Positions 11,780 to 26,867 are shown, counted from the first letter of the stretch. The stretch: DNA of 64,000 nucleotides from Patescibacteria group bacterium (GCA_018970465.1 JAGWWI010000001.1:3430-67429); one strand, 5' to 3'. Notes: generated by a model from the sequence alone, not told the origin. Numbers and translations: made by a program.

Positions 11780-12393
11780 AGCGCGCGGCGCCCGCGCACG
11801 ATATTGAGCGCGATAGGGAGGAACGAGACGACAATGATCCCGAGCGAGATCGGGAGTACGTAGTGCTGGATGCCCGGCACTGCCGTGCCGAGGAAGTAGC
11901 CCAAGGACACGACGCCCGCGCCCCAGATAATCCCCCCGAGCATGTTGTAGGAGAGGAATGTCGCGTAGCGCATCCGCGCGACGCCCGCCAAGACGGGCGC
12001 CAGGGTGCGCACGATCGGCACGAAGCGCGCGAGGAGCACGGCGCGCGGGCCGTACGTCGTATAGAAGCGCTCGGTGCGCTCCAAGTACTCGCGCTTGAAG
12101 AGGCGCGAGTCGGGCCGCTTGAAGAGCGCGCTGCCGACCCGCCGGCCGAACCAATAGCCGACCGTATCGCCGAGGATAGCGGCGAGCGCGACGACGGTCG
12201 CGAGCGGGAGATACCGCAAGAGCCCGCTCCCCGCGAGGAGGCCTGCAGCGAAGAGGAGCGAGTCGCCGGGGAGGAATATGCCGATCAGGAGCCCGCTCTC
12301 GGCGAAGACGAGGAGGGCGACGCCCGCGTATCCGCCCGCGCGCACGATCGCGAGGGGGTCCAAGTGCGCGCACGCGAGCAAGAAGTTCTCCAT
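11776..12393 (-). CDS. DedA/VTT-domain family membrane protein.
   Basis: The DedA core GLLIGIFLPGDSLLFAAG ... GRRVGSALFKRP ... RFVPIVRTLAPVLAG matches the family. Confidence 0.88.
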   Translation of the reverse strand: MENFLLACAHLDPLAIVRAGGYAGVALLVFAESGLLIGIFLPGDSLLFAAGLLAGSGLLRYLPLATVVALAAILGDTVGYWFGRRVGSALFKRPDSRLFKREYLERTERFYTTYGPRAVLLARFVPIVRTLAPVLAGVARMRYATFLSYNMLGGIIWGAGVVSLGYFLGTAVPGIQHYVLPISLGIIVVSFLPIALNIVRGRRAL

Positions 12394-12632
12394 GTGGCAC
12401 CCTCTATAACATCGCTTCTTCCTCCCTCGACCTCCCGAACAGCGCCCTCCAGCACTCGAGCATCACGGTCAACGGCACGCTCTTCAATCTCGGCGACTCC
12501 CACAGCATCACCGCCGCCTCCTCGACCCTGCTCGGGGACGCCAACACCTTCTCGGGCGCGAACGCCTTCACGACGGGCCTCACGGTCAACTCTTCGGGAG
12601 CAAATCCGACTATTAATAACACCACGAGCGGC

Positions 12633-15600
12633 GTGGGCGTCATTCTGCGCGGCATAAGCAGCGGCACCACCGGGCAACTGCGCATCGTCCCCAACGGTGG
12701 CGCATGGGCCGATAGCCAAGAAACGACCTATTTCCAAATCACCAACTCATCCAACAACAACGCGTCCTTCCAAGGGGGGACCTATGGCGCTGACACGCAG
12801 CTTAATCGGCTCCAATTCAATGCCTCATCGACGCAGGTTACTGACTACGCATTCGGCTCGACACCGGTCCCCAACTCGGTTTTCGGTGTCGTTTCCTCAA
12901 GTACCGTCAAGACGCTCTTCGCAGTGAAGAATACCGGCGGCTCGCCAAGCGGAGACTATCTGCAAATCTCTTCAAGCGCAGGCGCGGGCGACCTGCTTAA
13001 GGTCACGGGGGCAGGCCTCGTCGGCCTCGGCACCACCTCGCCCTCGACGACCCTCTCTGTCGGAGGAAGCGGATATATCACCGGCGGTCTTGGTGTCGGT
13101 GTCCTCAACACGGCTGCAGGAACCCTCACCACCTCAGGGAACGCGACGATCGGCGGCACGCTCGCGGCTGGCGCCGCCACCACCACCGATCTGGCGATTA
13201 CGCATCTCGCGAATGCGCTTCTTGCGGCGAACGCCGCAGGGTCCGTCGTCGCGACTACTTCGATAGGCGCCAATCTCCTGACAGGCTCTCTCGGTTCCAT
13301 CAACGGCAGCACATTCAACGCTGGTGCTTCGATCACCATCACCGCGGCCTCTTCCACGCTCCTCGCGAATAACAACACCTGGAGCGGCATCAACACGTTC
13401 ACAAACGCCTCTTCGAACTTCGCCGGCACCTGGCAGGGATACAGTCCGTCGGCCTTCGCCACCTTTAGCTATCCGTTCCCGGCGAACGCCACGACCACGC
13501 TTCTGAGCCTGAGCGGAGGGTTTACGGCGTATGCCTCCTCGACCATTGGTAAGGGAGGAGTCAATGGTCTTACTGTCAACGGGAACGCTACTACGACCGG
13601 CACCGCCTACTTTGGCGGGAATGTCGGAATCGCCTCGACCTCGCCGGAGTACCCGCTTTCGGTAGGGAACATTATCGGAATCGATGCGAGCGGAAACATC
13701 CACTTCGCGACGACCACGGAAATCAGTTATCCCGTAAGCCCGGGGAATTCGGCGCTTGATATCGTGGCGCAGAATGATACGTATCACGACAACCTCATCT
13801 CACTCGAAAACGACTCGATCCTTGCGAGCAACGGCCAGTGCGGCAATGATGCGCTCCGGTTCCGTGACAGCGTCGGGCATGTGGAGCGGGGCGCGATAGG
13901 GTATAGCAGCGTCAAGACCGGGTGCACGGCCGGATATAACCCAGACTATCTCTACGCCGAGATAGGGAATATCAACTCCGCAGATCCTGACGACACGAGC
14001 TTCGCCATCATCAACACGCACGGCCCGGGAGCGCTCAACCTTCCCGGGACCTCCTACAAAGTTCTCGACGTGCAGGGCAGCACGGGGAATTTGTCGCTCA
14101 ACGATACCAGCGGGAACTCGCACTTCTATCTCAACGCATCGAACGGTCATATCGGCATCGGAACGACGACGCCCGATGAGGCGCTCGTCGTGAACGACAC
14201 GATACAGGCCGGTAATACGACTCAGAACGGCAACCTCTACTTCGGCGGTTCCACCATCGCGCTCAAGTCGGCGTATTCGTCGAACATTCTAGCGATTTAT
14301 ACCGCCGGCAAAGAAGCCGCTCGATTCGACGGTAATGGGCGATTCGCGGTTGGGACCAGCTCGCCCTTCGCGCAACTTGCGGCATCCTCGACCTCCGTGT
14401 ACCCGACCTTTATTGCTGACCAGCATGGCTCGGCCCCGGTGGCTCTGTTCCTCGGCGGCAACGTCGGCATCGGCACCGCTTCTCCTAATACGAAACTGGA
14501 AGTGGATGGGAATGTAATCTTCAATCCGAACGCCATCGGAGGCGGCGGCCCCAACACCAACTCGGTTAACCTTATCGGCAATACGAATACAACCGCATTC
14601 CGTGCGACCTACAACAGCGTCGGCGCCCTCTTCTTGGGCCATAACTCCTCGAATGCCGTCATCGGTACCGATGGCACCGACCTGGCATTCCGAACCAACA
14701 TCGCGAGCGGCGACCTCACGAGCGGCTCCGAACTCATGCGCATCACCGCAAGCGGCAACGTCGGCATCGGGACGACGAGTCCGAGTTCGATGCTGACCGT
14801 GGGTACTGAAGGGACGACGCAAGCAATCTCCATCTCAGGCAATGCCGCGAGCCTATACACCGGTCGTCCGACCATAGATACCGCGCAGCTGAAGCTCGGT
14901 TCGGTCACTAGTTCGCAAGGCGGCGGCATCGAGTTCCAGGTGTCCTCGGCCAATAACGGCTACGGGTGGAAGATCGCCGCTCCCAACGTGACCAGCGGCA
15001 ACAGCAACCAGAGTCTGCTGTTCCTGGATCGCTCCAATTCTGCGACGTGGTCAGAAAAGATGAGGATCGACGAAAACGGCAACGTCGGCATCGGGACGAC
15101 GAGTCCGGGCTACCCGCTTGATGTTAAGGCGTCGGGCGCAATAGCGGCACGCCTATACGGCAATGCTGGCGCATCGAGCGACAACGTACAAGTGCGATTC
15201 GCGGGCCAAAAGGACGGAGAGTTGTGGGCGCTGGGATCGGATGTTACGGGAGGCGGATCAACGGGAGACTTTGAATTTTATAACTTAGGGAACGCGGGCG
15301 GGTCCATGGGTACGAAGCTGACCATTCTGGGGTCTGGCAACGTCGGTATCGGGACGACGAGTCCGGCCTACAAACTCACTGTCGACAACGCCGGATCGGC
15401 CGGCGGCGTTGCAGGCTTCGAGAATTCCTCGGGCGAGTGCGTCATAAATCCGACATCAAGCTCGATCAACTGCTCGTCCGACCAGCGGCTCAAGACCAAT
15501 TTCGTCTCCATCAGCACTACAACCGCCCTGGCCGATATCGAGGCGCTCTCCCCGACCTATTTCAACTGGAAAACGGAGGCCTCGGGCGCGCCGGAGCACG

Positions 15601-16106
15601 CGGGCTTCATCGCGCAGGAGGTGCAGCCGATCTTACCCGACCTTGTCTCGCAGGGCTCGAACGGCTACTACATGCTGGACTACACGGGCTTCGTGCCGTA
15701 CTTGACCGCGGGGATCCAGGCGCTCGCATACGAGATGCAGGGGCAAAGCGCCGATATAGCCCGTATACAGGGCCTTACGGGCCTCATGGCCACCACGACC
15801 CTCCCCGAGTCGCCCGCCTCGGGCGTCGCGGCCGAGTGCGTCGCGGGCGACACGAAGCTCCGCCGCCGGAGGAAGCGGGCGGACGGGAGCTACGCATACG
15901 ACGAGACCGACATCGCCGATATCGCGCCGGGCGACGAAGTCCTCTCGCTCGACGAGGCGACCGGCTGCGCGGTATACCGCCGCGTGAACGCGCTCCTGCC
16001 GCGCGGCGTGCAGGAGGTATACGAGCTCCGCACCAAGGGCGGCCGCGTGGTCCGAACCACCGCGAACCACCCATACCTTGTCCGCCTTTCCGATATAAGC
16101 GTATGA
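12633..16106 (+). CDS. Giant phage-tail-fibre-like protein: Gly/Thr/Ser-rich beta-helix with (G)NVGIGTTSP fibre repeats, a peptidase-S74 intramolecular-chaperone auto-processing domain, and an intein N-terminal (Hint) segment at the extreme C-terminus. The 5' end is uncertain: the track start is a GTG, and frame 0 is open and coding-like back to about 12394.
   Basis: The motif M/L-R-I-x-x-x-G-N-V-G-I-G-T-T-S-P recurs at least 5 times. S74 chaperone signatures are present: CSSDQRLKTN...HAGFIAQEVQPILPDLV...YMLDYTGFVPYLTAGIQALAYEM. Intein block A (CVAGDTKL) and block B (TANHPYLV) then follow. The stop overlaps the ATG of the next gene (ATGA). Confidence 0.85.
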   Translation: MGVILRGISSGTTGQLRIVPNGGAWADSQETTYFQITNSSNNNASFQGGTYGADTQLNRLQFNASSTQVTDYAFGSTPVPNSVFGVVSSSTVKTLFAVKNTGGSPSGDYLQISSSAGAGDLLKVTGAGLVGLGTTSPSTTLSVGGSGYITGGLGVGVLNTAAGTLTTSGNATIGGTLAAGAATTTDLAITHLANALLAANAAGSVVATTSIGANLLTGSLGSINGSTFNAGASITITAASSTLLANNNTWSGINTFTNASSNFAGTWQGYSPSAFATFSYPFPANATTTLLSLSGGFTAYASSTIGKGGVNGLTVNGNATTTGTAYFGGNVGIASTSPEYPLSVGNIIGIDASGNIHFATTTEISYPVSPGNSALDIVAQNDTYHDNLISLENDSILASNGQCGNDALRFRDSVGHVERGAIGYSSVKTGCTAGYNPDYLYAEIGNINSADPDDTSFAIINTHGPGALNLPGTSYKVLDVQGSTGNLSLNDTSGNSHFYLNASNGHIGIGTTTPDEALVVNDTIQAGNTTQNGNLYFGGSTIALKSAYSSNILAIYTAGKEAARFDGNGRFAVGTSSPFAQLAASSTSVYPTFIADQHGSAPVALFLGGNVGIGTASPNTKLEVDGNVIFNPNAIGGGGPNTNSVNLIGNTNTTAFRATYNSVGALFLGHNSSNAVIGTDGTDLAFRTNIASGDLTSGSELMRITASGNVGIGTTSPSSMLTVGTEGTTQAISISGNAASLYTGRPTIDTAQLKLGSVTSSQGGGIEFQVSSANNGYGWKIAAPNVTSGNSNQSLLFLDRSNSATWSEKMRIDENGNVGIGTTSPGYPLDVKASGAIAARLYGNAGASSDNVQVRFAGQKDGELWALGSDVTGGGSTGDFEFYNLGNAGGSMGTKLTILGSGNVGIGTTSPAYKLTVDNAGSAGGVAGFENSSGECVINPTSSSINCSSDQRLKTNFVSISTTTALADIEALSPTYFNWKTEASGAPEHAGFIAQEVQPILPDLVSQGSNGYYMLDYTGFVPYLTAGIQALAYEMQGQSADIARIQGLTGLMATTTLPESPASGVAAECVAGDTKLRRRRKRADGSYAYDETDIADIAPGDEVLSLDEATGCAVYRRVNALLPRGVQEVYELRTKGGRVVRTTANHPYLVRLSDISV
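15477..15800 (+). other. Peptidase S74 / intramolecular chaperone auto-processing domain (tail-fibre C-terminal chaperone), within the CDS.
   Basis: SDQRLK (containing the presumptive autocleavage Ser) ... GFIAQEV ... LDY ... L.AGIQAL. This is the classical endosialidase / tail-spike chaperone pattern. Confidence 0.75.
15837..16103 (+). other. Intein N-terminal splicing segment (Hint blocks A and B) at the C-terminus of the fibre protein.
   Basis: Cys1 codon at 15837 (…GVAAE|CVAGDTKL). Then ...GDEVLSLDEATG... and block B TTANHPYLV. The segment is about 89 aa and the ORF terminates right after it. Confidence 0.75.
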
Positions 16107-17425
16107 AACATACATTGACCGATGTAAAGAAGCGCGTCACTCCGAGGAATAAATCTGTCGCACAGGTGCGCGGGACGCGGGCGAAAAAGGCGGGAAGTCG
16201 TGAGATTCCAGAGCCGGGAATTCGTGATACGGCTCGCCGCATCGAATCGCGGCGAGCCGACATGTCCGCGCGGATCCGCTGCCCGTATTGCGGCTCCCCG
16301 GAATTCGTGAAGCGCGGCATCCGCAGGAAGAAGCATGAGGCCGTCCAGCTCTATCTCTGCCGCGCGGAGGCCTGCGGCCGCACCTTCACGAGCGAGCGCG
16401 TGAAGGGGAAGCGCTACCCCCTCCGGGTCATCATCGAAGGCATGAGCTACTACAATCTCGGCTGCACGCTCGAGGAGACCTGCCGGCTCTTGAAGAAAAA
16501 GTTCGCCGACGACGCGGGCGTGCTTGCGCCCACGCCCGAGACCCTCGCCGCGTGGGTAGAGCAGTACAAGCCGCTCTGCCGCTACGAGCGCATGCGCCCC
16601 TACGCGGTGAAGCTCTTGCGCCCCGCCGAGACGGTCGAGGTCGTGACCATGGCGCACCGCCAGCTCTATCGCTTCCGCTATCATCGCGCCAAGATGTTCC
16701 TCTCGCTCGAGGAGTTCGGCAACCGGCGCCTCGAACGGCTGAAGCAGTACCTCGACGCGGTGTCGAGCGAGACCCCGCACCAGTACTTCGACGAGGGCGC
16801 GCGCATGAGCGAGGTGAGGAGCCGGTTCGACGCGGCCGACATGATCGTGAAGGGGAAGCACAACTTCGCGAATGACCTCGCCGCGTTCGTCCTGCCCGCA
16901 GTCGAGCGCAACCTCGACCGCCACGAGGCGCTCCAGCGCTTCATGATCGCGAACGACAGCGTGACGGTGGCGACCGAGGTGCCGGTATATATCCGCCGCG
17001 AGGACGTCGAGCACCTCGAGAACGAGCTCAAGTTCAAGATCACGGACGACGGCCGCGTCTCGATGAAGGGGGACAAACAGCCGCGGCAGCTGCCGCAGCT
17101 CCTCACGGGCCATATCGACCTCGTGCAAGTGAGGAACGGCATGGTCCACATCCTCGACTACAAGCCCGGCGCTTCCAAAGAGCGGCCCGTCGAGCAGCTC
17201 ACTTGGTACGCGCTCGCACTCTCCCGGCTCACGGGGCTCCGGCTCTTCGAGTTCAAGTGCGCGTGGTTCGACGATCAGGATTACTACGAGTTCTATCCGC
17301 TCCATGTGGTCAAAAAGCTGCGCCCGGCTTCCGGGAAGAAGCCGCGGCGGCGCTATGTCCACTTCAGGGACGGCACGACGGCCGAGGTGCCGCGCGAGCA
17401 TGCCGCCAAGCCGGTTATCGTATGA
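16103..17425 (+). CDS. Zn-ribbon/HTH (IS1595/InsA-like N-domain) fused to a RecB/Cas4-like PD-(D/E)XK nuclease. A candidate free-standing homing endonuclease inside the split intein.
   Basis: N-terminus RCPYCGSPEFVKRG...YLCRAEACGRTFTSE (CxxC...CxxxxC) followed by an HTH-like YPLRVIIEGMSYYNLGCTLEET. C-terminal motifs are ATEVPVY (E), GHIDLVQVRNGMVHILDYKPG (motif II, D...D.K) and EQLTWYALAL (QxxxY). ATGA overlaps on both sides. Confidence 0.75.
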   Translation: MKHTLTDVKKRVTPRNKSVAQVRGTRAKKAGSREIPEPGIRDTARRIESRRADMSARIRCPYCGSPEFVKRGIRRKKHEAVQLYLCRAEACGRTFTSERVKGKRYPLRVIIEGMSYYNLGCTLEETCRLLKKKFADDAGVLAPTPETLAAWVEQYKPLCRYERMRPYAVKLLRPAETVEVVTMAHRQLYRFRYHRAKMFLSLEEFGNRRLERLKQYLDAVSSETPHQYFDEGARMSEVRSRFDAADMIVKGKHNFANDLAAFVLPAVERNLDRHEALQRFMIANDSVTVATEVPVYIRREDVEHLENELKFKITDDGRVSMKGDKQPRQLPQLLTGHIDLVQVRNGMVHILDYKPGASKERPVEQLTWYALALSRLTGLRLFEFKCAWFDDQDYYEFYPLHVVKKLRPASGKKPRRRYVHFRDGTTAEVPREHAAKPVIV

Positions 17426-17901
17426 TTATGAATTACTACAAGTCCAAGTATGAGCGGCGGCAGTTCGCGCCGAAGAAGCCGGTGAAGACCTTCCGCGACC
17501 TCGATATCTACCAGAAGACGCTCGAGTGCGCGGTCATCGTGATGAAGAACGTGCGCCCGAAGCTGGCTGCGCTCAAGTATCCGTTCCTGGACGGCATGAC
17601 CGATTGCGCCATGAACGTACCGCTTGCGATAGGCGAGGCGCATTCGATCCGCTTCGCGGACTTCGCGAAGGGACTCGGCCACCTGGAGCGCGCCATGAGC
17701 GGCTGCAACAAGATGATCATCTACCTCGAGCATGCGAAGGGGATGCACGGCGCGAAGGCCGATCCCGACAGCATCATCGACGAGCTCGTCGTGCGGTATG
17801 CCGAGAGCCGTACGAAGAGCTTCCGGCTCGAGCAGTCGTGGAAGAAGTGGCGGCAGGCGGACGCCGCGCTTCCCGCCGCTGCCCGCGCCCCGCGCCTATG
17901 A
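17422..17901 (+). CDS. Four-helix-bundle protein (TIGR02436-like; 23S rRNA intervening-sequence protein / DGR Avd family).
   Basis: The sequence FRDLDIYQKTLECAVIV...NVPLAIGEAHS...GLGHLERAMSGCNKMIIYLEHAKGM fits the FRDL..WQKA / NIAEG / GS..E four-helix pattern. About 160 aa, with ATGA overlaps on both sides. Confidence 0.75.
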   Translation: MIMNYYKSKYERRQFAPKKPVKTFRDLDIYQKTLECAVIVMKNVRPKLAALKYPFLDGMTDCAMNVPLAIGEAHSIRFADFAKGLGHLERAMSGCNKMIIYLEHAKGMHGAKADPDSIIDELVVRYAESRTKSFRLEQSWKKWRQADAALPAAARAPRL

Positions 17902-18149
17902 ACATGACCATGCCGCTCAAAAACCTTTCCGGAGATCGCGCGCGCTGGCGCAAGGTATCCGAGCTCGCGCCGGGCATGCTACTTGCCGTCGCCGCTGACG
18001 AGGTCCTCGCGCGCGCGACGGACGGCGTTGAGGACGCCGTGCTCTGGGACGACATCGTCTCGATCGCGTCGGTCGGGCGCGAGGAGGTGTTCGACATTGA
18101 GGTCGCCGGCACGCGCAACTTCGTCGGCAACGGCATCTACGCCCACAAC
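17898..18149 (+). other. Intein C-terminal splicing segment (blocks F and G), within the CDS.
   Basis: Block F VFDIEVAGTRNF, block G NGIYAHN, and a +1 Thr nucleophile. Confidence 0.7.
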
Positions 18150-19292
18150 ACGTATCTGCCGTCCGCCACCACGCTGCTCACGGTGGGCGGCGCGGCGGTG
18201 GACGCGGCCGCGTACATCGTCCCGGATGAGCCGGTCGTCGTCGAGTCCGGTGATGCGACGACGACCTTGAGTGCGCCGTCCGATGCGCTCGCGCCGGGCG
18301 GCGGCGTCGACCTCTATACGCTCGGACTCCACGACCTGGCGGCAGTCAACGCGCTCGCCGCCGAGGTCGACGCCAATGCCTCCACCACCGCTGCTCAGGG
18401 TACGAGTATCGCTACGCTCCGGTCCTCCCTCGCCGCCCTCCAGGGCGTGAACCTCGACCTCGCGGCCGTCGCGTCCTCCACCCTCGACATCGCGAGCACG
18501 ACAACGCCCTTGGACGCCGCGCAGGCGTTCGCGCAAGGGTTCTTCGGGAGCCTCTTTGCGCATATCACGAGCTGGCTCGCGAATAGCGGGAATGGGATAG
18601 GCAACCTCTTCGCCGCCGTGATCCACACAAACGAGCTCTGCGTCAAGGACGCGGCGGGCGCGGACGTCTGCATCACGGGCGACCAGCTCGCCGCGGCGGT
18701 CTCGGGCGCGGGCGCCGCCGCGCTCCCCGGCGTCACGACCGCCGACACGACCGTCACGAGCCAGAGCTCGACTGGCGCCGCGAGCACCGCCTCCTCCACC
18801 CCCTCCACCTCCACCGACGTCACTCCCCCCGTCGTCACCCTCCTCGGCTCCGCAGCGATGAACATCACCCAGGGCGCCGCCTTCACCGACCCTGGTGCGA
18901 CCGCTACAGACGACACCGACGGCGACCTGACCGCCAAGATCGTCGTCTCGGGCGCCGTCGACCCCGCAACCCCCGGCCTCTACACCCTCACCTACTCAGC
19001 GACCGACGCCGCCGGCAATACCGGCACCGCCTCCCGCGTGGTCACCGTCACCGCTGCAGGCTCCTCCACCCCAGACACCACCGCCTCCTCCACGCCTTCT
19101 GCAAGCACGAGCGGATCCGTCGCCTCCTCCAACACCGCCCCGGCCGACACCTCGACCGCTCCTCCGACGACGAGCACCACTGATACGACGACCGCACCCA
19201 CCCCGACCTCCGCAACCACCGATACCACTACGACGAGTGCAGCGGCGACGACCGATACCACCGCGAGCGCCCCGGCCGCAAGCGGCAATTAA
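17898..19292 (+). CDS. Protein beginning with an intein C-terminal splicing segment (blocks F and G, ...GIYAHN|T). It is followed by an extein with a bacterial Ig-like (DUF5011/Big-like) domain and a Thr/Ser/Pro-rich tail.
   Basis: N-terminus ...VLWDDIVSIASVGREEVFDIEVAGTRNFVGNGIYAHN then T(+1)YLPS.... Downstream, PPVVTLLGSAAMNITQGAAFTDPGATATDDTDGDLTAKIVVSGAVDPATPGLYTLTYSATDAAGNTGTASRVVTV is an Ig-like domain pattern. The gene is in the same frame as the fibre gene. The start is an internal ATG of track ORF 17526..19292. Confidence 0.8.
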   Translation: MNMTMPLKNLSGDRARWRKVSELAPGMLLAVAADEVLARATDGVEDAVLWDDIVSIASVGREEVFDIEVAGTRNFVGNGIYAHNTYLPSATTLLTVGGAAVDAAAYIVPDEPVVVESGDATTTLSAPSDALAPGGGVDLYTLGLHDLAAVNALAAEVDANASTTAAQGTSIATLRSSLAALQGVNLDLAAVASSTLDIASTTTPLDAAQAFAQGFFGSLFAHITSWLANSGNGIGNLFAAVIHTNELCVKDAAGADVCITGDQLAAAVSGAGAAALPGVTTADTTVTSQSSTGAASTASSTPSTSTDVTPPVVTLLGSAAMNITQGAAFTDPGATATDDTDGDLTAKIVVSGAVDPATPGLYTLTYSATDAAGNTGTASRVVTVTAAGSSTPDTTASSTPSASTSGSVASSNTAPADTSTAPPTTSTTDTTTAPTPTSATTDTTTTSAAATTDTTASAPAASGN

Positions 19293-19573
19293 CTAGGTTA
19301 TGCGGCGACTCTGCACAGAGGAGAAGTTCCTGGATGGGATTGAAGAAAGAAGCTGGGTTGCTAAAATGGCGATGGTTGGTGACTTGATGGGGGCGGGCGA
19401 GAGTATCCACACCATAGCTCTCGTTTGGGGTCGTGCGGTCGCGTCTTCCAAAAAAATCTGGTGTGTGCGTAGAAGACGCCAGCGGCGCGCACGCCCCTCA
19501 GCGGTTTCGTCCGTTGCCCCGTCAGTTCGTCAACCAGCCTCTGCAAGACCGTCGGTGATCCAGATTTCGCACT

Positions 19574-20116
19574 ATGCTTAGCCGGTACGACATACGAGGC
19601 AGGGTGGGCGTTTTTATCGACGCGGCGAATATTTTTTACTCGCAGCGCACGCTCGGGTGGCGTATCGACTTTGGCAGGCTCGCCGGGTATCTGAAAGGGG
19701 AGATCGATATAAAGGGCATGTACTATTACACCGGCAAAGTCGGCGCGCTCGCAAAGCAAGTATCCTTTCTCCAGAAGCTGCAATCTCTCGGCTACGAGGT
19801 AACTGCGAAAGAGGTGAAGTTCATAAAAACCGGCGGCGGTGCCCAGATCCCCAAGGGCAATCTTGATGTGGAACTCGCGCTCGATGCCTTCAGGCTCAAA
19901 GAGAATTTCGACGTATTTTTGCTGTTCTCGGGTGATTCAGACTTCGCGTATCTCATCGACCTTCTGAAACAGGCAGGGAAGCGCGTGTTCGTCCTCTCGA
20001 CGCGCGGCCATGTCTCGAAGGAACTGCTTGATCGCGCGAAGTATATAGATCTGCGGCGGCTCAGGGCCTTCGCGGAAAAGATCAAGGGGCCGGACGAGCC
20101 GGCCCCTGAGGTCTGA
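19574..20116 (+). CDS. NYN-domain (LabA/DUF88-like) putative RNase.
   Basis: GVFIDAANIFYS (N-terminal Asp), DVELALDAF, and LLFSGDSDFAYLIDLLKQAGKRVFV: the NYN/PIN-like acidic residues in the canonical order. Confidence 0.75.
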   Translation: MLSRYDIRGRVGVFIDAANIFYSQRTLGWRIDFGRLAGYLKGEIDIKGMYYYTGKVGALAKQVSFLQKLQSLGYEVTAKEVKFIKTGGGAQIPKGNLDVELALDAFRLKENFDVFLLFSGDSDFAYLIDLLKQAGKRVFVLSTRGHVSKELLDRAKYIDLRRLRAFAEKIKGPDEPAPEV

Positions 20117-20130
20117 CACAGCCACTATAT

Positions 20131-20586
20131 ATGACCCATTCTAAACGTCAAGTGAATAGCGGCCGGCTCGTGAGGCAGAGCCTCGCGGCGAAGCGTTTCT
20201 CCCTTTTTCTCCCTTTCTTCCTCTTCCTCCCGCTGCTCCCCCTTTCTACCCTTTTCCTTTTCCCCGCCGAAGCGCACGCCTCCGCCTTCACCCGCCCGCC
20301 GAACAATTTGGGCCTCGTCGGCTACTGGAATTTCGACGAAGGCTCGGGCACCGTCGCGCACGACCGCTCGGGGCAGGGCAACAACGGCACGCTCGTCAAT
20401 GCGCCGACGTGGGTGAAAGGGAAGGTGAACGGGGCGCTGTCGTTCAATGGGACGAATCAGTGTGTCGATGCGGGCAATGCCTCGTCGCTCAATGTGAGCG
20501 CCGCCACCGGCATGGCAGCCTGCGCTTGGTTATATCTGAATTCATACAGCTCCAGTACAGCTCTACAAGCTCGGGCATTGATATGA
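20131..20586 (+). pseudogene. Truncated LamG/ConA-like surface-protein gene. It keeps the N-terminal signal/TM and the first about 60% of one LamG domain, and is disrupted downstream by an AT-rich insertion carrying hicBA.
   Basis: It starts MTHSKRQVNSG..., like the intact paralog at 21840. It then reads AHASAFTRPPNNLGLVGYWNFDEGSG...ALSFNGTNQ, diverging at ...LNSY into an AT-rich sequence and a stop. The 5' DNA is nearly identical to the start of the 21840 gene. Confidence 0.6.
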
Positions 20587-20639
20587 GAAAAGTGGAAAGT
20601 AAGAAGTATAAAGAAGAAAGTATGGAGAAAAAAGAATCG

Positions 20640-20843
20640 CTACAAATCCCTCGACGAGAGTCCGCTCTGTTTCAAAATCGATCGCAGCGTGCTCTCGGGC
20701 AGATCTCCCGTGTGCATCGGGACGGTGACGCGCCGCTTGTCGTGCTCCCGATAGTAGATGCGGTGACTGCCTTTTTGCCTTTGGAATATGTATCCTTCCC
20801 GCTCAAGCGCGCGGCACAAAGTGCGGGCCGAAACGCCGGCCAT
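20640..20843 (-). CDS. hicA: HicA-family mRNA interferase toxin (type II TA).
   Basis: The 67-aa product LCRALEREGYIFQRQKGSHRIYYREHDKRRVTVPMHTGDLPESTLRSILKQSGL matches the YcfA/HicA consensus (GSH..., tvPhH...l..gtlrsIlkq). Confidence 0.8.
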   Translation of the reverse strand: MAGVSARTLCRALEREGYIFQRQKGSHRIYYREHDKRRVTVPMHTGDLPESTLRSILKQSGLSSRDL

Positions 20844-20846
20844 ATA

Positions 20847-21080
20847 CTATCGGGCAATTCCCACCTCGATGCTTCCCAGGAGCGTCGTGTCGGCTTCGGG
20901 CGCTTTTTCACCCGCTGCCTCCATGTCTTCCAAATACAGTTCGATCGCCTCGCGCGCCATCGCGCGCGCCTCGTTCATGTCGGCGCCGTAGGTGACGCAG
21001 CCAGGAAGCGCAGGCACCGTAACGGTGTACCCGCCTTGCGGATCGGATTCGAAGACAAGCTGGAAGGTCTGTTTGGTCAT
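20847..21080 (-). CDS. hicB: HicB-family antitoxin (UPF0150 fold).
   Basis: The 77-aa product FQLVFESDPQGGYTVTVPALPGCVTYGADMNEARAMAREAIELYLEDM matches the HicB N-terminal domain pattern (y.v.ie...gGy.a.vP.LpGc.t.G.t.eEa...EAi). It lies immediately upstream of hicA. Confidence 0.75.
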   Translation of the reverse strand: MTKQTFQLVFESDPQGGYTVTVPALPGCVTYGADMNEARAMAREAIELYLEDMEAAGEKAPEADTTLLGSIEVGIAR

Positions 21081-21116
21081 GGCAGCAGTATAGCAAATCG
21101 TGAGGCAGTAGAAAGT

Positions 21117-21371
21117 ATGAAGTATAAAGGGCTCAAGAGAGCGCTGCTTTGCGCGTCTCCCTTTATGCTTGCTACCTTATTCTTGCTTCCTCCGCTCGCG
21201 CACGCGAGCGTCCTCACCCGCCCGGCCAACAATTTGGGCCTCGTGGGGTACTGGCAATTCAACGAAGGCTCGGGCTCGCTCGCGCACGACACCTCTGGTG
21301 CTGGCAACACGGGTACGCTCGTCGGTTCGCCGAGCTGGGTGGCGGGGAAGGTGGGCGGAGCGATAGTATGA
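21117..21371 (+). pseudogene. N-terminal fragment of a LamG-repeat surface protein (signal peptide plus about 55 aa of LamG domain), truncated where the mazF-like gene begins.
   Basis: The product MKYKGLKRALLCASPFMLATLFLLPPLAHASVLTRPANNLGLVGYWQFNEGSGSLAHDTSGAGNTGTLVGSPSWVAGKVGGAIV reaches a stop 1 nt before the MazF-like ATG. Confidence 0.55.
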
Positions 21372-21372
21372 C

Positions 21373-21816
21373 ATGAGTATGCGAAAAGATTTCGATACAT
21401 GGAATGGAGAGAAGAAGCGCATCAACGAGCACGACACGGGCGCACTCTATTTCTACGAGCGTGAGATCTGGTGGTGTTCTCTTGGAGTGAACGTGGGCTT
21501 CGAGCAGGATGGGACGAATGAGCTATTCCAGCGCCCTGTCGTGATACTGAAAAAGTACAATCCGCAGATTTTTCTCGCTCTGCCGCTCTCGACGACATCC
21601 AAGCGCGGAAGCTATTATTGGCCGGTGGGCATCGTGGACGGTGAACAAGCCGTCGCGATACTCTCGCAGTTGCGCCTTTTGGATTCTAAACGACTGACGA
21701 ATCGCATCGGCATACTCGGCAAAAAGGAATTCGATCTTCTCGTCGGGGAAACCGTCGCCGCGAATTTCCCCACCTTAAAAAGTTCTCCCCCGCCGGGAGG
21801 CGGGGGCAAGCCGTGA
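21373..21816 (+). CDS. MazF/PemK/Kid-family toxin-like endoribonuclease with no adjacent antitoxin.
   Basis: The sequence EREIWWCSLGVNVGFEQDGTNELFQRPVVIL...LALPLSTTSKRG...AVAILSQLRLLDSKRLTNRIGIL aligns with the Kid/PemK blocks GEIW.v.l....G.EQ.G.RPvlIv / vP.Ts / R..D..R. Lower GC than the flanks. Confidence 0.7.
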   Translation: MSMRKDFDTWNGEKKRINEHDTGALYFYEREIWWCSLGVNVGFEQDGTNELFQRPVVILKKYNPQIFLALPLSTTSKRGSYYWPVGIVDGEQAVAILSQLRLLDSKRLTNRIGILGKKEFDLLVGETVAANFPTLKSSPPPGGGGKP

Positions 21817-21839
21817 GGCCGTTTGTGACTAGAGTATAT

Positions 21840-24029
21840 ATGACCCATTCTGAACGTCAAGTGAATAGCGGAAAAATCACGAGGCTAAGCCTCCTGAAAC
21901 ACCTCTTTCCCCCCGTTCTTCTCGTTGCCGCCCTTTTCTTGCTGCCTGCTTCGGCGCACGCGAGCGTCCTCACCCGCCCCGCCAACAATCTCGGCCTCGT
22001 CGGCTACTGGCAGTTCAACGAAGGCTCGGGCTCGCTCGCGCATGATGTTTCGGGTAACGGTGTTGCCGGCGTAGTCGTCAATGGCCCCGCCACCTGGACG
22101 ACGGGGAAGTTTGGCAGCGCGCTGTTACTAAGCTCGGCATCCAATCAACAGGTGCAGGCAACCTCGACTAAGGCCGTTCAATTTTCTACGACGCAGTGCG
22201 CGTGGATAAAACTCAATTCATACAATGGCGGCAATTTCGCCGGAGTGGCAGGCACCGGCGCGGGCGGAACAATCCTCACGACAAGATCATCGAATGCGAC
22301 ATTCGGCGCGTCGATACAAATCGCAAATTTTCACTTGTCGGCAAACAAAGCGGTGTTTATCTACAATACAGCCGGCACTGCGGTGGGCGCGGCGGGTAAC
22401 ACGACCATCGCCCTCAATACGTGGTATTTCATATGCGGTACATTTTCATACACCGGCGGCGGCGGAAACTTCGACGGCAATTGGCAAGTCTATGTGAATG
22501 GAGTCGAAGACGATTCGAGCGCGAATAATTACCTTGCGGCTGGCGGCAATCCCAGTTTCCCCATGAACGGCACCACCTGGAACATAGCCGGTATAGATGG
22601 CGCGATCGACGACGTCCGCATCTACAACCGCGCGCTATCGGCGGCGGACGTCCTGAAGCTCTACCAGCTCGGCACGACGCAAGTGAAGGCGACCCTCGGC
22701 ACCGCGCCCATCGTCCTCACCCCCACCGCCGGCATCGGCAGCGGGCTCGTGGGGTACTGGCCATTCAACGAAGGAACGGGCAACACCACCGCCGACATTT
22801 CCGGCAACAAGAACACCGGTACGCTCGTCAATGCGCCGAGCTGGGTGAAGGGGAAGTATGGGAATGCGCTGTCGTTCAATGGGACGAATTATATTTCTCT
22901 GGGAAATGTAGCGGCACTCAGTTTCCCGAGCACCGACTTCGGCATATGCGCATGGGCCTACCCGATCGAGAACAGCAATTACAGGGAGATAGTCAACAAG
23001 GGAGATAGCGGATCTGCCAGCGGTTCGCAGTATGAAGTACTTTTGGATAACTCGGGGAAGTACGCGTTTAATGTCATGGTGGGAGGTGTTGTTGATCGGC
23101 TGGCCGATACAGCGACCGCTTCTTTAAATAAGTGGGCTTACGTATGCGGTGTTCGCCAAGGGGCGCTCAATTCGCTTTATGTAAACGGTATTTTAAGGAA
23201 TTCGGCATCTTTTAGCGGACCGCTGAACACCACATCGAACGGTGTGAGTATAGGAGCCGCGGGCAACGGAAACACAAGCCTTGCTTTTAGGGGCACCATC
23301 GACGAAGTGCGCATCTACAACAGAGCACTTTCATCAAGCGAAGTGAAGCAGCTCTATCTCGACGAGAGCGTGCAGATCGGGCACAGCAACGCGGTCGTCT
23401 CGAACGGCCTCGTGGGCTGGTGGACCATGGACGGCAATAATTTGATCCAGAACGTGAAGGATTCGAGCGGGCAGGGGAATAACGGCTCCCTCGTCGGCTT
23501 CTCCGCCACCTCCTCGGCCGAAGTCGCGGGCAAAATCGGCGGGGCTTTGAAGTTTAATGGGACGAGTCAGTATATTACTGTCCCAGACACCACCGCGTTG
23601 CGGCTGTCGGGTAATTATTCTGTATCGGTTTGGATCAGGCCCGCAGCTCTAAAAGACTACGGAAACGTGCTTTTTAAAGAATCCCTAATAAGCAATACGG
23701 GCTATGGTCTCATCACCTTCGCAAACGGCTCGTGGGGATGGCAGATCGGCAATACGCTAGATATACAAACCTCCGCCGCGTTGCTAAAGAATACTACCTG
23801 GTCTCTTCTCATCGCGACGTATGACGGAACCAACGTACGTCTCTACCAGAACGGATCGCTCCTTTCGACCACCGTGGCTTCGGCAGTGGCGAGCGATGCG
23901 ACGGCTCTCGCCCTCGGCGCTGATACTGGCGACGGGAGATATTTTAACGGCACTATCGACGACGTCCGCGTCTACAACCGCGCCCTTTCGGCGAGCGAGA
24001 TCCAGGCGCTCTATGCGGCGGGGAGGTAA
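21840..24029 (+). CDS. Secreted surface protein with three LamG/ConA-like (Laminin_G_3-type) domains.
   Basis: Signal peptide ...LLPASAHA|SV. Three repeats run from GLVGYW.FNEG.G....D.SGN.N.G.L...P.W..GK.G.AL.FNG to ...IDDVRIYNRALSAAEV/SSEV..LY. The start is an ATG 27 nt inside track ORF 21813..24029, so that it does not overlap the mazF-like stop. Confidence 0.85.
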   Translation: MTHSERQVNSGKITRLSLLKHLFPPVLLVAALFLLPASAHASVLTRPANNLGLVGYWQFNEGSGSLAHDVSGNGVAGVVVNGPATWTTGKFGSALLLSSASNQQVQATSTKAVQFSTTQCAWIKLNSYNGGNFAGVAGTGAGGTILTTRSSNATFGASIQIANFHLSANKAVFIYNTAGTAVGAAGNTTIALNTWYFICGTFSYTGGGGNFDGNWQVYVNGVEDDSSANNYLAAGGNPSFPMNGTTWNIAGIDGAIDDVRIYNRALSAADVLKLYQLGTTQVKATLGTAPIVLTPTAGIGSGLVGYWPFNEGTGNTTADISGNKNTGTLVNAPSWVKGKYGNALSFNGTNYISLGNVAALSFPSTDFGICAWAYPIENSNYREIVNKGDSGSASGSQYEVLLDNSGKYAFNVMVGGVVDRLADTATASLNKWAYVCGVRQGALNSLYVNGILRNSASFSGPLNTTSNGVSIGAAGNGNTSLAFRGTIDEVRIYNRALSSSEVKQLYLDESVQIGHSNAVVSNGLVGWWTMDGNNLIQNVKDSSGQGNNGSLVGFSATSSAEVAGKIGGALKFNGTSQYITVPDTTALRLSGNYSVSVWIRPAALKDYGNVLFKESLISNTGYGLITFANGSWGWQIGNTLDIQTSAALLKNTTWSLLIATYDGTNVRLYQNGSLLSTTVASAVASDATALALGADTGDGRYFNGTIDDVRVYNRALSASEIQALYAAGR

Positions 24030-24044
24030 TATGAAGACTGTCGT

Positions 24045-26867
24045 ATGACGCTCAAGCAATCGCACGCTCCCGAAGGCTACAAGCAGCTGCTCGCATACCA
24101 GAAGGCGGAGCGGCTGCAGGAGGCGTGCGCGGCGTTCACGTCCCGTTTCTCCCATTTTTCCCATTCGCCCCATTTCCGCACCCTGATGGCGCTCGCGGAT
24201 CAGATGGACCGCTCCGCCCGCTCGGTGAAGCAGAACATCGTGGAGGGGTGGAAGAGGAATTCGACGAAGGAATACTACGACTTCCTCGGATTCTCGATCG
24301 GCGCGAACGCGGAGCTGCAGGAGGATTGCGACGACATCATCAAGGGCCGGTATGAAATGGGAGGAAAAGGGTTGAAAAGGGAAGAATGGGAGGAAGGGGA
24401 GAAATGGGATATCGAAAGGGTAGAAAAGCTGCCCTTTTACCCCCTTGATTCCCATTTGCCCCTTTTGATCCAGCTCCGGCTGCGCTGCAAAGAATTGAAT
24501 TTCCTGCTCGACAAACTGCAGAAATCTCTCGCCGAGAAGATGCGCGAGGATCACACCCTTTCCGGCGCCGATCGGTTCAACGCGGCTCGCCGCGCGCAAG
24601 CGGAAGAGGATAAGTGGTTTGCAAAAAGTTTGGAGGAGCAAGGGCTCACGCGGCTCTCCAACGGGCAGGTCGTAACAAAGGGAGAAAAGGGTAACAAAGG
24701 GGAGAAAGGAAGCGTCCGCCTTTCCCTTTTTCTCCTATTTTCCCCCTTCCTCCTTTTTTCCTTTTTGCTGCTTCCCGCGCCCGCAGAGGCCGCGCTCACC
24801 CGCCCGCCCAACAACCTCGGCCTCGTCGGCTACTGGCCTTTCGACGAAGGCAGCGGCTCGACTGCGTACGACCGAAGCGGCTTCGGCAACAACGGGACGC
24901 TCGTGAATTCGCCCGCGTGGACGGTGGGGAAGCTGGGCGGGGCACTGAGCTTCAATGGGACGAATCAATACACCACGACGGGAACCACGAGTTTCCCCAC
25001 AGGTTCGTCCGCGCGATCCGTCTTCGCTTGGATTTATGTAGCGGGTTCTACGGGCAACGAGCAAGACGTGTTCTCGTACGGAAACGGCGGAACCACCGTT
25101 CAAGCTTCCAATTTCGGCATGCAAGCTTCGGGGCTCAAGCTCTTTTTTTCGTCTTGGGGATCGGGAAGCGCAACTTTTAACAGCAGTCTTTCCGTGACTA
25201 CTGGCACGTGGCATTTCGTCGGGTATACCCTCACGAGCTCCGGCACCGCCACGCTCTATTTGGATGGAACCTCCGCTCAAGCTACGGGCATGAGCGTTGG
25301 TACGGTCATACCGGCGGTATCGGACGCATCCGTCATAGGATCTGGGCCGAATGGCCAGGAATCTGGCAGATACTTCGACGGTAAGATAGACGACGTCCGC
25401 ATCTACAACCGTGCGCTCTCCGCCGCAGACGTGGCCCGCCTCTACCAGCTCGGCACCGCGGTCGCGGGGCCAACGAAGATCACGAGCCCCACCACCTTCC
25501 TCACCAACGGCCTCGTCGGCTACTGGACTTTCGACGGCAAGAATATGGTCAACAACGTCGCCGACAGCTCCGGCAACGGCAATAACGGCTCGCTCGTCGG
25601 CTTCACCTCGACCACGACCGCCGAGACGCTCGGCAAGATCGGCCAGGCGCTGAATTTTAATGGGACGAATCAGTATGTGCTCGTGCCTGACGCACCAAGT
25701 ATCCGTCTCTCGAACAAGTTCAGCATTTCTTTTTGGTTCAAGACAGCGAACCTTGCTCAAACCAATACCTATATCATGTCGCGCAACAACTCCACGGGCG
25801 GTACTCAAAGTTCCATTATTTTTGGATTCGTGCCGAGTACCATTGAATTCTACGCCTCAGGCTTTAGTGGCTCGGATCCCCGGACCGGTTCTCAAATCAG
25901 CATCTCCGATACCAGATGGCATCAGGTGACCTACACCTACGATGGAACGACGTGGAGTGGCTATCGTGACGGTCAACAGATATTTTCCACCAGCCGCACA
26001 TTTTCGCTCAGTACCGCTTCGCTTGATGGGTGGTACATCGGCTCGGCCAATACATTTGCAAATTTTATCAAGGCGTCACTCGACGACGTCCGCATCTACA
26101 ACCGCGCGCTCTCGGCGAGCGAGGTGCAGGAGCTCTACAACGCCACCGGCGGCGCGCCCACCATTACGCCCGCGGCCGTCGCGGCTGCGGGCCCCGCGCC
26201 CGGGAACCTCGTCGGCTACTGGACATTCAACAACAAGGACATGAACTGGCAGACCGGCATCGCGCTCGACAAGAGCGGCCAAGGCAACAACGGCACGCTC
26301 ATCAACATGAGCACGACGACTTCGCCGGTGGAAGGCAAGGTGGGGCAGGCGCTCAAGTTCAACGGGACGAGTCAGTATGTCAAAGTTTCGAATGGCACGA
26401 TAGTGAAAACGCTTCCCAACTCGTCAATCTCAGCGTGGATAAAAGTCGCGGGAACAGTCGGATCGACCGCTCAAACTATTTACAGTGAAAATGAGCCCCT
26501 GGGAGTCGATTACGGTCTTCTTGTTGAAGGCAGCGGCAACAACGGTTGCGGCGCCAGTACCGCGGGCAGGGCTTCTTTTTATATGGCCAACGGTTCTGAC
26601 CACAACGCCTGCACGACGACGCGTGTCGACGACGGGAAATGGCATTATTTGGTTGCGACGTACTCTGGTGGTTCTGCGATGAACATATACCTCGACGGAG
26701 TATTGAGCGGCTCTGGCACGGGTAGTGCAGCTGCGAGTGCTGCGGCCTCCTACGTCGGCAGGTCCGGGCAGGGAGTCTATTTCAACGGCACCATCGACGA
26801 CGTCCGCATCTACAACACCGCGCTCACGGCCGCGCAGGTCTTGCAGCTCTACAACGCGACGAAGTGA
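24045..26867 (+). CDS. Fusion ORF: an N-terminal four-helix-bundle (TIGR02436/Avd-family) domain, a low-complexity linker and TM, then a LamG/ConA-like surface protein with about 4 LamG domains. It may instead be two genes, with the LamG part starting at an internal ATG near 24538.
   Basis: Residues 1-about 150 read LAYQKAERLQEACAAFTSRF...RSARSVKQNIVEGWKRNSTKEYYDFLGFSIGANAELQEDCDD...LIQLRLRCKELNFLLDKL, a four-helix-bundle pattern. Then comes a TM LFLLFSPFLLFSFLLLPAPAEA|ALTRPPNNLGLVGYW and repeated LamG units ending ...IDDVRIYNRALSA.EV. A 5-codon uORF (ATG 24031 ... TGA) overlaps the start as ATGA. Confidence 0.75.
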   Translation: MTLKQSHAPEGYKQLLAYQKAERLQEACAAFTSRFSHFSHSPHFRTLMALADQMDRSARSVKQNIVEGWKRNSTKEYYDFLGFSIGANAELQEDCDDIIKGRYEMGGKGLKREEWEEGEKWDIERVEKLPFYPLDSHLPLLIQLRLRCKELNFLLDKLQKSLAEKMREDHTLSGADRFNAARRAQAEEDKWFAKSLEEQGLTRLSNGQVVTKGEKGNKGEKGSVRLSLFLLFSPFLLFSFLLLPAPAEAALTRPPNNLGLVGYWPFDEGSGSTAYDRSGFGNNGTLVNSPAWTVGKLGGALSFNGTNQYTTTGTTSFPTGSSARSVFAWIYVAGSTGNEQDVFSYGNGGTTVQASNFGMQASGLKLFFSSWGSGSATFNSSLSVTTGTWHFVGYTLTSSGTATLYLDGTSAQATGMSVGTVIPAVSDASVIGSGPNGQESGRYFDGKIDDVRIYNRALSAADVARLYQLGTAVAGPTKITSPTTFLTNGLVGYWTFDGKNMVNNVADSSGNGNNGSLVGFTSTTTAETLGKIGQALNFNGTNQYVLVPDAPSIRLSNKFSISFWFKTANLAQTNTYIMSRNNSTGGTQSSIIFGFVPSTIEFYASGFSGSDPRTGSQISISDTRWHQVTYTYDGTTWSGYRDGQQIFSTSRTFSLSTASLDGWYIGSANTFANFIKASLDDVRIYNRALSASEVQELYNATGGAPTITPAAVAAAGPAPGNLVGYWTFNNKDMNWQTGIALDKSGQGNNGTLINMSTTTSPVEGKVGQALKFNGTSQYVKVSNGTIVKTLPNSSISAWIKVAGTVGSTAQTIYSENEPLGVDYGLLVEGSGNNGCGASTAGRASFYMANGSDHNACTTTRVDDGKWHYLVATYSGGSAMNIYLDGVLSGSGTGSAAASAAASYVGRSGQGVYFNGTIDDVRIYNTALTAAQVLQLYNATK

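Follow-up and report, generated by a model that had tools for sequence, protein, structure and literature searches.

What is a free-standing nuclease gene doing between the two halves of an intein that interrupts a surface-fibre gene? The question is raised by a locus in a 64,000-nucleotide (nt) stretch of DNA from a Patescibacteria group bacterium (GCA_018970465.1 JAGWWI010000001.1:3430-67429), the whole of which is referred to below as the window. Four plus-strand open reading frames (ORFs), designated A, B, C and D, are chained there by ATGA start/stop overlaps at 16103-16106, 17422-17425 and 17898-17901, that is, at every junction of the chain. ORFs A and D carry the two parts of a fibre-like gene together with the halves of a split intein, and the gap between the halves holds the nuclease gene B and a second gene, C. 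We consider it an even call whether B together with C (hereafter B-C) is a two-gene homing-type nuclease cassette for the 3′ part of Patescibacteria fibre genes with a Peptidase_S74 (S74) domain, homing being plausible but unproven. The general type of arrangement, a free-standing endonuclease gene in a split intein, is already known, and so are homing endonucleases of the PD-(D/E)XK superfamily. The parts of the locus are the following.

ORF A, 12633-16106, plus strand: fibre-like protein of 1157 amino acids (aa), the C-terminal end of which is the N-intein half
N-extein, 12633..15836, plus strand: GNVGIGTT repeats and the Peptidase_S74 chaperone domain; the start codon is uncertain
Peptidase_S74 domain of the N-extein, about 15477-15647, plus strand: Pfam E 1.3e-16, catalytic SDQRLK at aa 949
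N-intein half, 15837..16106, plus strand: from Cys1 (CVAGDTK) to block B (TTANHPYLV), its TGA overlapping the ATG of B
B, 16103..17425, plus strand: ATG at 16103, TGA at 17423-17425, 440 aa
C, 17422..17901, plus strand: 159 aa, its start overlapping the stop of B and its stop the start of the C-intein half (ATGA)
ORF D, 17898-19292, plus strand: C-intein half, then Thr+1 and the C-extein
C-intein half, 17898..18149, plus strand: ...VFDIEVAGTRNFVGNGIYAHN, with Asn at 18147-18149, ending in AHN before Thr+1
C-extein, 18150..19292, plus strand: opens with Thr+1 (TYLPSATT...) and has a Thr/Ser/Ala-rich tail
Ig-like domain of the C-extein, about 18837-19049, plus strand: Pfam Bact_surface_Ig-like, E 1.8e-24

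The two intein halves cover complementary parts of the Pfam Intein_splicing profile, the N-intein half (which also matches Hint and PT-HINT) at positions 11-71 and the C-intein half at positions 115-155 (E 5e-7), and Cys1, the TxxH motif and the HN|T junction are all there. Residues C1, G4, D5, T6, T74, T75, H78 and P79 are invariant in the N-intein alignment (A4). Both extein-intein halves and the nuclease gene lie on one strand with the splicing residues present, which is the anatomy of a fractured gene. B is located between intein blocks B and F, i.e. in the endonuclease slot, as a separate cistron with an ATGA overlap and not as an in-frame intein domain. This is where the preliminary description of the sequence had put it, with the ORF placed exactly at 16103-17425 and translational coupling named; B had been taken for the only gene in the gap, however, and C (17422-17901) had been overlooked. 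The N-extein contains direct repeats coding for GNVGIGTT, and the C-extein motif FF.SLF..I..WL...NGIGNLF...LCV is conserved in an alignment with intein-free relatives. No promoter- or terminator-like site was detected inside the four-gene unit on the plus strand (12633-19292), and an Rfam scan of 12000-20500 returned no family, so there is no hidden intron or riboswitch. The window itself is a cellular chromosome with 64% G+C, possessing Pfam-confirmed GAPDH and transketolase genes as well as gyrB-like and ribosomal-protein-like ORF N-termini recognised by eye.

B is a basic protein (isoelectric point 9.8) with the following regions.

N-terminal extension, variable: motif GSREI..P..RDT at aa 34-46
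Zinc ribbon, aa 58-97 (nt 16274-16393)
Helix-turn-helix (HTH)-like helices, aa 104-155: the low-confidence model has three, at aa 107-154
Helical middle region, aa 160-285
PD-(D/E)XK nuclease domain, aa 286-405 (nt 16958-17317): E292, D339, D352-x-K354, Q365xxxY369

Above-threshold profile hits and invariant residues, together with tentative fold matches, support the view that B combines an IS1/IS1595-type zinc ribbon with a RecB/Cas4-like PD-(D/E)XK nuclease domain. The zinc-ribbon motifs RCPYCGSPEFVKRG...YLCRAEACGRTF occupy aa 59-95, where the NCBIfam profile IS1_IS1595_Zn (NF050000) matches aa 60-97 (30.9 bits, the cut-off being 28; E 3e-7); all 83 family members have C86 and C91, and 82 of them have C60 and C63. 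The nuclease motifs are ATEVPVY (aa 290-296), GHIDLVQVRNGMVHILDYKPG (aa 336-356) and QLTWYALAL (aa 365-373), and the domain is matched by Pfam PDDEXK_1 (PF12705) at aa 305-376 (25.4 bits, the gathering score being 22; E 1.6e-5) and by the PHROG family 'exonuclease' (E 2.1e-5), with E292, D339, D352, K354, Q365 and Y369 unchanged in all 83 members. All the motifs quoted in the preliminary description are present, the domain matches exceed chance, and its IS1595/InsA-like ribbon and RecB/Cas4 nuclease domain are both borne out; as for the HTH that it joined to the ribbon, the segment is weakly supported by Pfam DUF4817 (E 0.07) and the low-confidence helices. Relatives of B, fused and free-standing alike, share the N-terminal motif (I)SESREI..P..RD(T/M), so the upstream ATG at 16103 is probably the true start; the annotation of an identical protein deposited in NCBI from a Patescibacteria genome begins at Met54. 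A 14-nt direct repeat (CCGGGAATTCGTGA-like) occurs in three copies in the 5′ coding part of B (16190-16310), which may be due to chance.

Among known nucleases, the Cas4, AddA-AddB and RecB domains share with B the motifs E...D...DxK and QxxxY, the Pfam match being above the gathering score. B differs from this group in having no Cas4/AddB-type four-cysteine iron-sulphur cluster round the core, C386 being the sole invariant cysteine at aa 286-405, and no helicase or CRISPR context, and in the transposase-type zinc ribbon and helical region fused on at the N-terminus. As the preliminary description had stated for LAGLIDADG, HNH and GIY-YIG, the Pfam/NCBIfam and PDB searches with B gave no match to these families, nor to the His-Cys box, I-Ssp6803I-type or EDxHD families, and sequence and profile searches of all PDB chains returned zinc-ribbon noise only and no nuclease. 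The homing endonuclease I-Ssp6803I, whose gene lies in a group I intron, is small and consists of one domain, with no zinc ribbon, HTH or partner gene. B shares with it the PD-(D/E)XK superfamily and a proposed role in mobilising an intervening element, any relation beyond the fold class being undetectable in the PDB searches. It is only this broad fold class that B has in common with the six characterised homing-endonuclease families, that of I-Ssp6803I included, which have been reviewed (PMC3384342).

The zinc ribbon also raises the question of whether B is the transposase of an IS-like element, since the NCBIfam match to the IS1/IS1595-type domain is above its cut-off and some database records bear the names 'transposase-like protein' or 'IS1 family transposase'. 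With the IS1 InsA/IS1595 module B shares the four-cysteine ribbon followed by short helices, but no DDE family was matched in Pfam or NCBIfam, B does not behave as a multi-copy element (it is single-copy in all but two sampled genomes, and of these two the one included in the tree has its copies in different clades), and the coding sequences in the window abut the intein halves with no non-coding ends. Since neither terminal inverted repeats nor target duplications flank B-C, this very improbable explanation was rejected. A stand-alone relative from the alphaproteobacterium Croceibacterium soli (WP_160747441.1; L090:2694-3713, the L-numbers L001-L175 being the ids of the 175 related loci fetched), annotated as 'IS1 family transposase', has D352 replaced by Ala (ILAYK) and is without a C-like partner; it is possibly an inactive relic.

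C follows B in 84 of 90 loci, and three of the six exceptions are contig ends, leaving 84 of 87 loci with enough downstream sequence. C is basic as well (isoelectric point 9.7). Its AlphaFold2 model has a predicted local distance difference test score (pLDDT) of 87, and the best PDB matches of the model in Foldseek are 2rld and 2gsc ('S23 ribosomal protein family') and the Avd protein of diversity-generating retroelements (DGRs; 8ub7/4dwl), with a probability of about 1.0 and a target-normalised template-modelling (TM) score of 0.6-0.87. Judged by the modelled fold, C is a four-helix bundle of the superfamily of 23S-rRNA intervening-sequence (IVS) proteins and Avd. At the sequence level the match is weak but recurrent: C of the window is not matched by Pfam 23S_rRNA_IVP (PF05635) and gives E 0.034 with NF008912, while among 47 homologues NF008912 matches 15 and TIGR02436 three, and one homologue is labelled 'four helix bundle protein' in NCBI. 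Besides the fold (TM up to 0.87), C shares with the Avd/23S rRNA IVS family the core size and the basic charge, but it is paired with a nuclease instead of a reverse transcriptase and possesses a conserved N-terminal extension (aa 1-24). Proteins of the 23S-rRNA-IVS family, whose function is unknown, have been reported from intervening sequences of rRNA genes, including those of the Candidate Phyla Radiation (CPR) (PMC11270868), and the Avd family is also found with DGRs at the 3′ end of variable genes. No reverse transcriptase was detected in the locus ORFs scanned (12633-26867) and no long direct repeat pair in 12000-20500, so the Avd-like C does not belong to a recognisable DGR. Further along the window, a 940-aa plus-strand ORF (24045-26867) opens with a canonical four-helix bundle of the 23S_rRNA_IVP family (aa 14-93, E 9.8e-12), to which three Laminin_G_3 domains are joined in the same frame, and is either a fusion or a four-helix-bundle gene that is missing its stop codon ahead of a LamG surface-protein gene.

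For a sample chosen without regard to B, metagenome contigs were searched with the N-intein-half alignment, which resulted in 356 confirmed matches, 80 fetched loci and 82 complete inteins. B-C is carried by 29 of the 82 inteins (24 with B and C, five with NYN, B and C), all 29 of them split, whereas the 18 with an in-frame NYN domain and the 35 with no recognised cargo are all contiguous; seven of the latter are mini-inteins and the others have inserts of ~170-510 aa, two of them matching DUF3800. The 80 inteins with clean boundaries all span Cys1 to HN|Thr. No LAGLIDADG, HNH or GIY-YIG domain was found in the Pfam-scanned inserts (10 of the 35 cargo-less inteins plus NYN- and B-bearing examples). 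A single reading frame covers the N-intein half together with B (an IntN-B fusion) in 10 of the 29 B-C inteins, as it also does in the species loci L034, L039, L052 and L053 of the sample described below; across the 29, B is never fused to the C-intein half, C always being an ORF of its own, and B is broken in three. The cargo is correlated with the insertion site: the site directly after the S74 domain (...GVLSV.PGVNAQ|C...N|TYLLRAD, for example, and ...GVAAE|C...N|TYLPSATT in the window) holds 18 of the 25 distinct B-C inteins and not one of the other 41, while a site in the GIGTT repeats is common to all cargo types. Some fibre genes harbour several inteins of the family (four each in L111 and L132, three in L163, two in L168), inserted at a repeated ...GTT.P..L.V.GQ|...|TY..GN.GIGT motif, and in L168 an intein-free paralogous repeat (593-815) matches two spliced junctions with 84% and 76% DNA identity and represents an empty site, one that pertains to cargo-less and NYN inteins.

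Contiguous single-ORF inteins with NYN, a PIN-like nuclease domain, include L005:216-1271, L035:1025-2299 and the 18 in L096-L175 (e.g. L118:5001-6125 and L169:5001-6047), with Pfam Intein_splicing and NYN both above the gathering thresholds. In-frame inserts of 170-510 aa are exemplified by the contiguous inteins L132:6624-7916 and L153:5001-6116 and, among the other inserts, by L113:947-1936, L166:5001-5978 and L103:402-2312; of the inserts scanned, those other than the two that match DUF3800 have no Pfam match, and LAGLIDADG, HNH and GIY-YIG are absent from all that were scanned.

If B-C is a homing cassette, the zinc ribbon and HTH-like module of B would bind DNA and the RecB/Cas4-like domain would cut it, B being produced together with the basic, Avd-like C, possibly as a complex. 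In the window the cassette occupies the endonuclease slot of a Hint intein of the Cys1/Thr+1 type, which is placed right behind the S74 chaperone domain, and with start and stop codons of its own the cassette divides both intein and fibre gene between two cistrons. One transcript would serve all four cistrons, with termination-reinitiation at the ATGA overlaps, and the fibre would be restored by protein trans-splicing of the intein halves. B would be specific for fibre alleles or paralogous sites without the element, and after its cleavage there, repair of the break would copy the intein and the cassette in. The homing role had been proposed in the preliminary description, and it is partly supported by the IntN-B fusions, by the post-S74 site being exclusive to B-C inteins and by the lack of canonical endonucleases in the family. 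Also in its favour are the 29 B-C inteins in a sample chosen without regard to B, the multiple copies per gene and the empty paralogous site, which speak for mobility of the intein family, the intermixing of embedded and free-standing copies in at least four clades of a neighbour-joining tree of B, the mobile-element neighbours and patchy distribution of the wider family described below, and occasional decay, with B or C broken in three of 80 species loci and B in three of the 29 inteins. The look for the same ORF beside other split inteins that had been suggested there finds it in the 29 inteins of the sample above and in 15 of the 80 loci chosen by B, which are considered next.

More than 2,300 homologues of B are detectable (279 representatives at E <= 1e-30 after clustering at 50%), the top 120 being 60-75% identical and, where a source is named, coming from Patescibacteria or an unclassified 'bacterium'. 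A scan of one genome per species, with a pattern pre-filter that detects close B relatives only, confirmed 118 copies in 185,579 species. Of these, 80 species loci were fetched, all Patescibacteria-type or from an unclassified 'bacterium' save for one contig binned as Desulfobacterales, and their parts were located using hidden Markov models (HMMs) built from the window. Relatives of B were absent from IMG/VR viral contigs, from 50,697 phage genomes and from 72,556 plasmids, which lends no support to an origin from phages or plasmids. The wider family is patchily distributed, and the four distant relatives sampled (330-390 aa) are all stand-alone, with no fibre gene nearby; one is that of Croceibacterium soli mentioned above, two lie beside mobile-element genes, one next to a group II intron reverse transcriptase, where the only C-like partner of the four is found, and the other next to a relaxase, and the fourth has an Spt5-NGN/KOW gene at its locus.

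Several observations weigh against homing, the first being the genomic setting. B-C is flanked by both intein halves in 15 of the 80 species loci and by one half in three more, so only 15-18 are intein-embedded, and in 24 it lies 3′ of an uninterrupted fibre gene with S74 and tail, sometimes 5-13 nt after the stop codon. In 12 loci the upstream S74 domain alone was recognised, in 15 the HMMs recognised nothing (most of the 11 viewed by eye have a repeat-rich fibre-like ORF upstream), and in 11 the upstream sequence is too short. Of the outcomes that the preliminary description had named as refuting homing, wide occurrence outside inteins or introns with a housekeeping role is partly seen: the gene is widespread outside inteins, and its non-embedded copies mostly lie 3′ of a fibre gene that has no interruption. 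NYN and Bro-N genes occur in the intein slot too, so the slot may be no more than a permissive parking place. Comparison of spliced junction DNA with the 175 loci revealed no empty site for a B-C intein, and the intein-free alleles detected for the fibre gene of the window are distant ones. B is poorly modelled (pLDDT 54.7), and we know of no homing endonuclease that requires a separately encoded four-helix-bundle partner.

The mode of evolution points in the same direction. Between L007 and L026 the synonymous divergence (dS) of B (1.00) is near that of GAPDH (0.98), which implies that the two diverged together, and the ratio of nonsynonymous (dN) to synonymous divergence comes to 0.06 in both B and C, compared with 0.26 in GAPDH. 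Selfish endonucleases are not usually under purifying selection of this strength, which suggests vertical inheritance; under the homing reading it would reflect ongoing selection for activity or, alternatively, could reflect a second, host-beneficial role. B and C are the best-conserved parts of the locus: in pairs of split loci the dN of B and C (0.04-0.15) is lower than that of the intein halves (0.07-0.28) and of the S74 region (0.12-0.63), and the neighbourhood with GAPDH and transketolase is kept across loci. Decay is rare, B or C being broken in three of the 80 species loci. Recent horizontal transfer of B and C between L007 and L026, considered in view of their 93-95% protein identity (GAPDH 72%), was rejected given the equal dS of ~1.0 in the codon analysis, only dN being lower. 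Change is rapid in the S74 region of the fibre, with dN/dS 0.5-0.7 and 38-43% aa identity (e.g. in L001 vs L018 and the window vs L011), and in the same comparisons the embedded intein, B and C keep 69-91% identity.

These data fit a free-standing homing-type nuclease, and they also fit a conserved accessory of the fibre locus. B-C could be host-beneficial and only secondarily found inside inteins, for instance as a site-specific nuclease that has become domesticated, is accompanied by an Avd-like protein able to bind nucleic acids, and nicks or breaks the 3′ part of the fibre gene for recombination or gene conversion, or that regulates the operon; an analogous recombination role is played by the HO endonuclease in yeast mating type. 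Such an accessory, which we consider rather unlikely, would agree with the dN/dS of B and C about four-fold below that of GAPDH at equal dS, with their conservation, which exceeds that of the intein halves and by far that of the S74 region, with the position of B-C immediately 3′ of and co-oriented with the fibre gene in a conserved chromosomal neighbourhood, and with the resemblance of C to an accessory protein of DGRs, which are likewise located at the 3′ end of variable surface-protein genes. It would also agree with an Ig-like fibre fragment 3′ of B-C in L026 (10965-11096) that shares 88.6% DNA identity with the fibre gene of L007 at its 3′ end (L007:1657-1788), the rest of the two loci being 77-80% identical; the fragment may be a recombination remnant or a spare cassette. 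On the other hand, S74 fibre genes without B-C exist, a confirmed match was found in only 118 of the 185,579 species (close relatives only), the distant relatives of B have no fibre gene nearby, no reverse transcriptase or donor cassettes were recognised among the locus ORFs scanned, and the in-frame fusion of B to the N-intein half is left unexplained.

The mixed contents of the slot and of the downstream region suggest another explanation, namely that B-C is unrelated selfish or defence cargo, such as an addiction or toxin-antitoxin-like pair of a toxic nuclease and its inhibitor or an anti-phage module, tolerated in the intein slot and in a downstream hot spot, with the intein moving, if at all, by other means. 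NYN and Bro-N genes are found in both places and PemK/MazF, HicAB, GIY-YIG and IS200-like genes in the downstream region, NYN, Bro-N, PemK/MazF, GIY-YIG and IS200-like genes being frequent between or beside the recognised parts of the species loci. B and C are as tightly coupled as two-gene toxin systems, and PADLOC weakly matches B to an Argonaute-associated Cas4-like nuclease (E 3e-5). That match is a generic one of fold, however, C has no match in PADLOC or among toxin-antitoxin families, and B-C is strongly tied to one gene type and not to defence islands in general. Since the IntN-B fusions and the correlation of cargo with insertion site would not be expected of passive cargo, this explanation appears quite unlikely.

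Returning to the homing cassette, B-C is best read as existing in three states: free-standing after the fibre gene, nested in the intein slot, where it splits the intein, and with B fused to the N-intein half. It is possible, if tentative, to join these states with the rest of the cargo and suggest that an invasive fibre-gene intein family without a canonical endonuclease recruited at least three nuclease-type cargos of an unconventional sort, in-frame NYN, in-frame DUF3800 and B-C, with B-C as the first two-component homing nuclease, represented at all stages up to the N-intein fusion, and perhaps partly domesticated for recombination at the 3′ end of the fibre gene.

Read as a homing cassette, the B-C locus matches the gene-breaking model of Dassa et al. 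(PMC2677866) and supplies its predicted intermediates. As in their fractured genes, a host gene is broken by a split intein with same-strand nuclease gene(s) in the endonuclease slot, there is an overlap of coding frames at the junction to the downstream half, and the nuclease family also occurs stand-alone outside intervening sequences; the in-frame fusion, an evolutionary step predicted there, is observed in relatives of B. The differences concern the host gene, which is a surface-fibre gene of cellular Patescibacteria instead of one for a phage DNA-metabolism enzyme, the nuclease, which is a zinc-ribbon RecB/Cas4-like PD-(D/E)XK protein and not of the GIY-YIG or Vsr-like type, the gap, which is filled by two genes (nuclease and four-helix bundle), sometimes with NYN or Bro-N too, and the junctions, all of which are ATGA overlaps with neither the 27-51-nt non-coding spacer nor the hairpin of the fractured genes. 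The literature searched contained nothing on inteins of CPR bacteria, on inteins with an NYN domain or on nucleases that have a four-helix-bundle partner. An intein nuclease of this architecture, its obligatory Avd-like partner, the type and lineage of the host gene, and an intein family without canonical endonucleases that carries NYN, DUF3800 or B-C appear to be undescribed there.

Inteins were previously known mainly from conserved replication enzymes. The present loci indicate that they can abound, up to four per gene, in fast-evolving surface-fibre genes of cellular CPR bacteria, and they provide many new natural Cys1/Thr+1 split inteins as candidate protein-ligation tools. If B, with C, is a true homing nuclease, it would add a new architecture to the six characterised families, give a first clue to what the widespread 23S-rRNA-IVS/Avd-like four-helix-bundle proteins do when they occur outside retroelements, and offer living intermediates for the model in which free-standing nuclease genes become intein domains and for the origin of split inteins. 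If B-C is instead a conserved fibre accessory, it would represent a nuclease-based mechanism acting on the adhesin genes of episymbiotic bacteria.

One more gene adjoins the fibre gene downstream.

NYN-domain gene, 19574..20116, plus strand: Pfam NYN, E 8.5e-26

The same NYN gene is found elsewhere either beside B-C in a split intein or in frame within a contiguous intein (L001, L011, L005, L035). Just 3′ of the fibre locus there are a HicA/HicB toxin-antitoxin pair and a PemK/MazF-like gene (20640-21080, minus strand, and 21373-21816, plus strand), and PemK-like genes recur immediately 5′ of B in L012, L040, L061, L072, L077 and L082. An S74 protein in L094 (5001-6197), a locus with no B-C, shows 67% identity to the fibre query from the window over about a third of its length, mainly in the S74 region; its contig carries genes for a PhyR-type sigma factor and H-NS and looks non-Patescibacterial, which hints at lateral transfer of the S74 module. 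An IS200/Y1-transposase-like ORF separates the fibre/B-C region from GAPDH in three loci (L007:4711-5409, L026:11380-12078, L041:4950-5687). The L007 copy is matched by Pfam Y1_Tnp, and the counterpart in the window, without a Pfam match at E 0.001, is located at 36247-36906 on the plus strand, ~5.6 kb past GAPDH.

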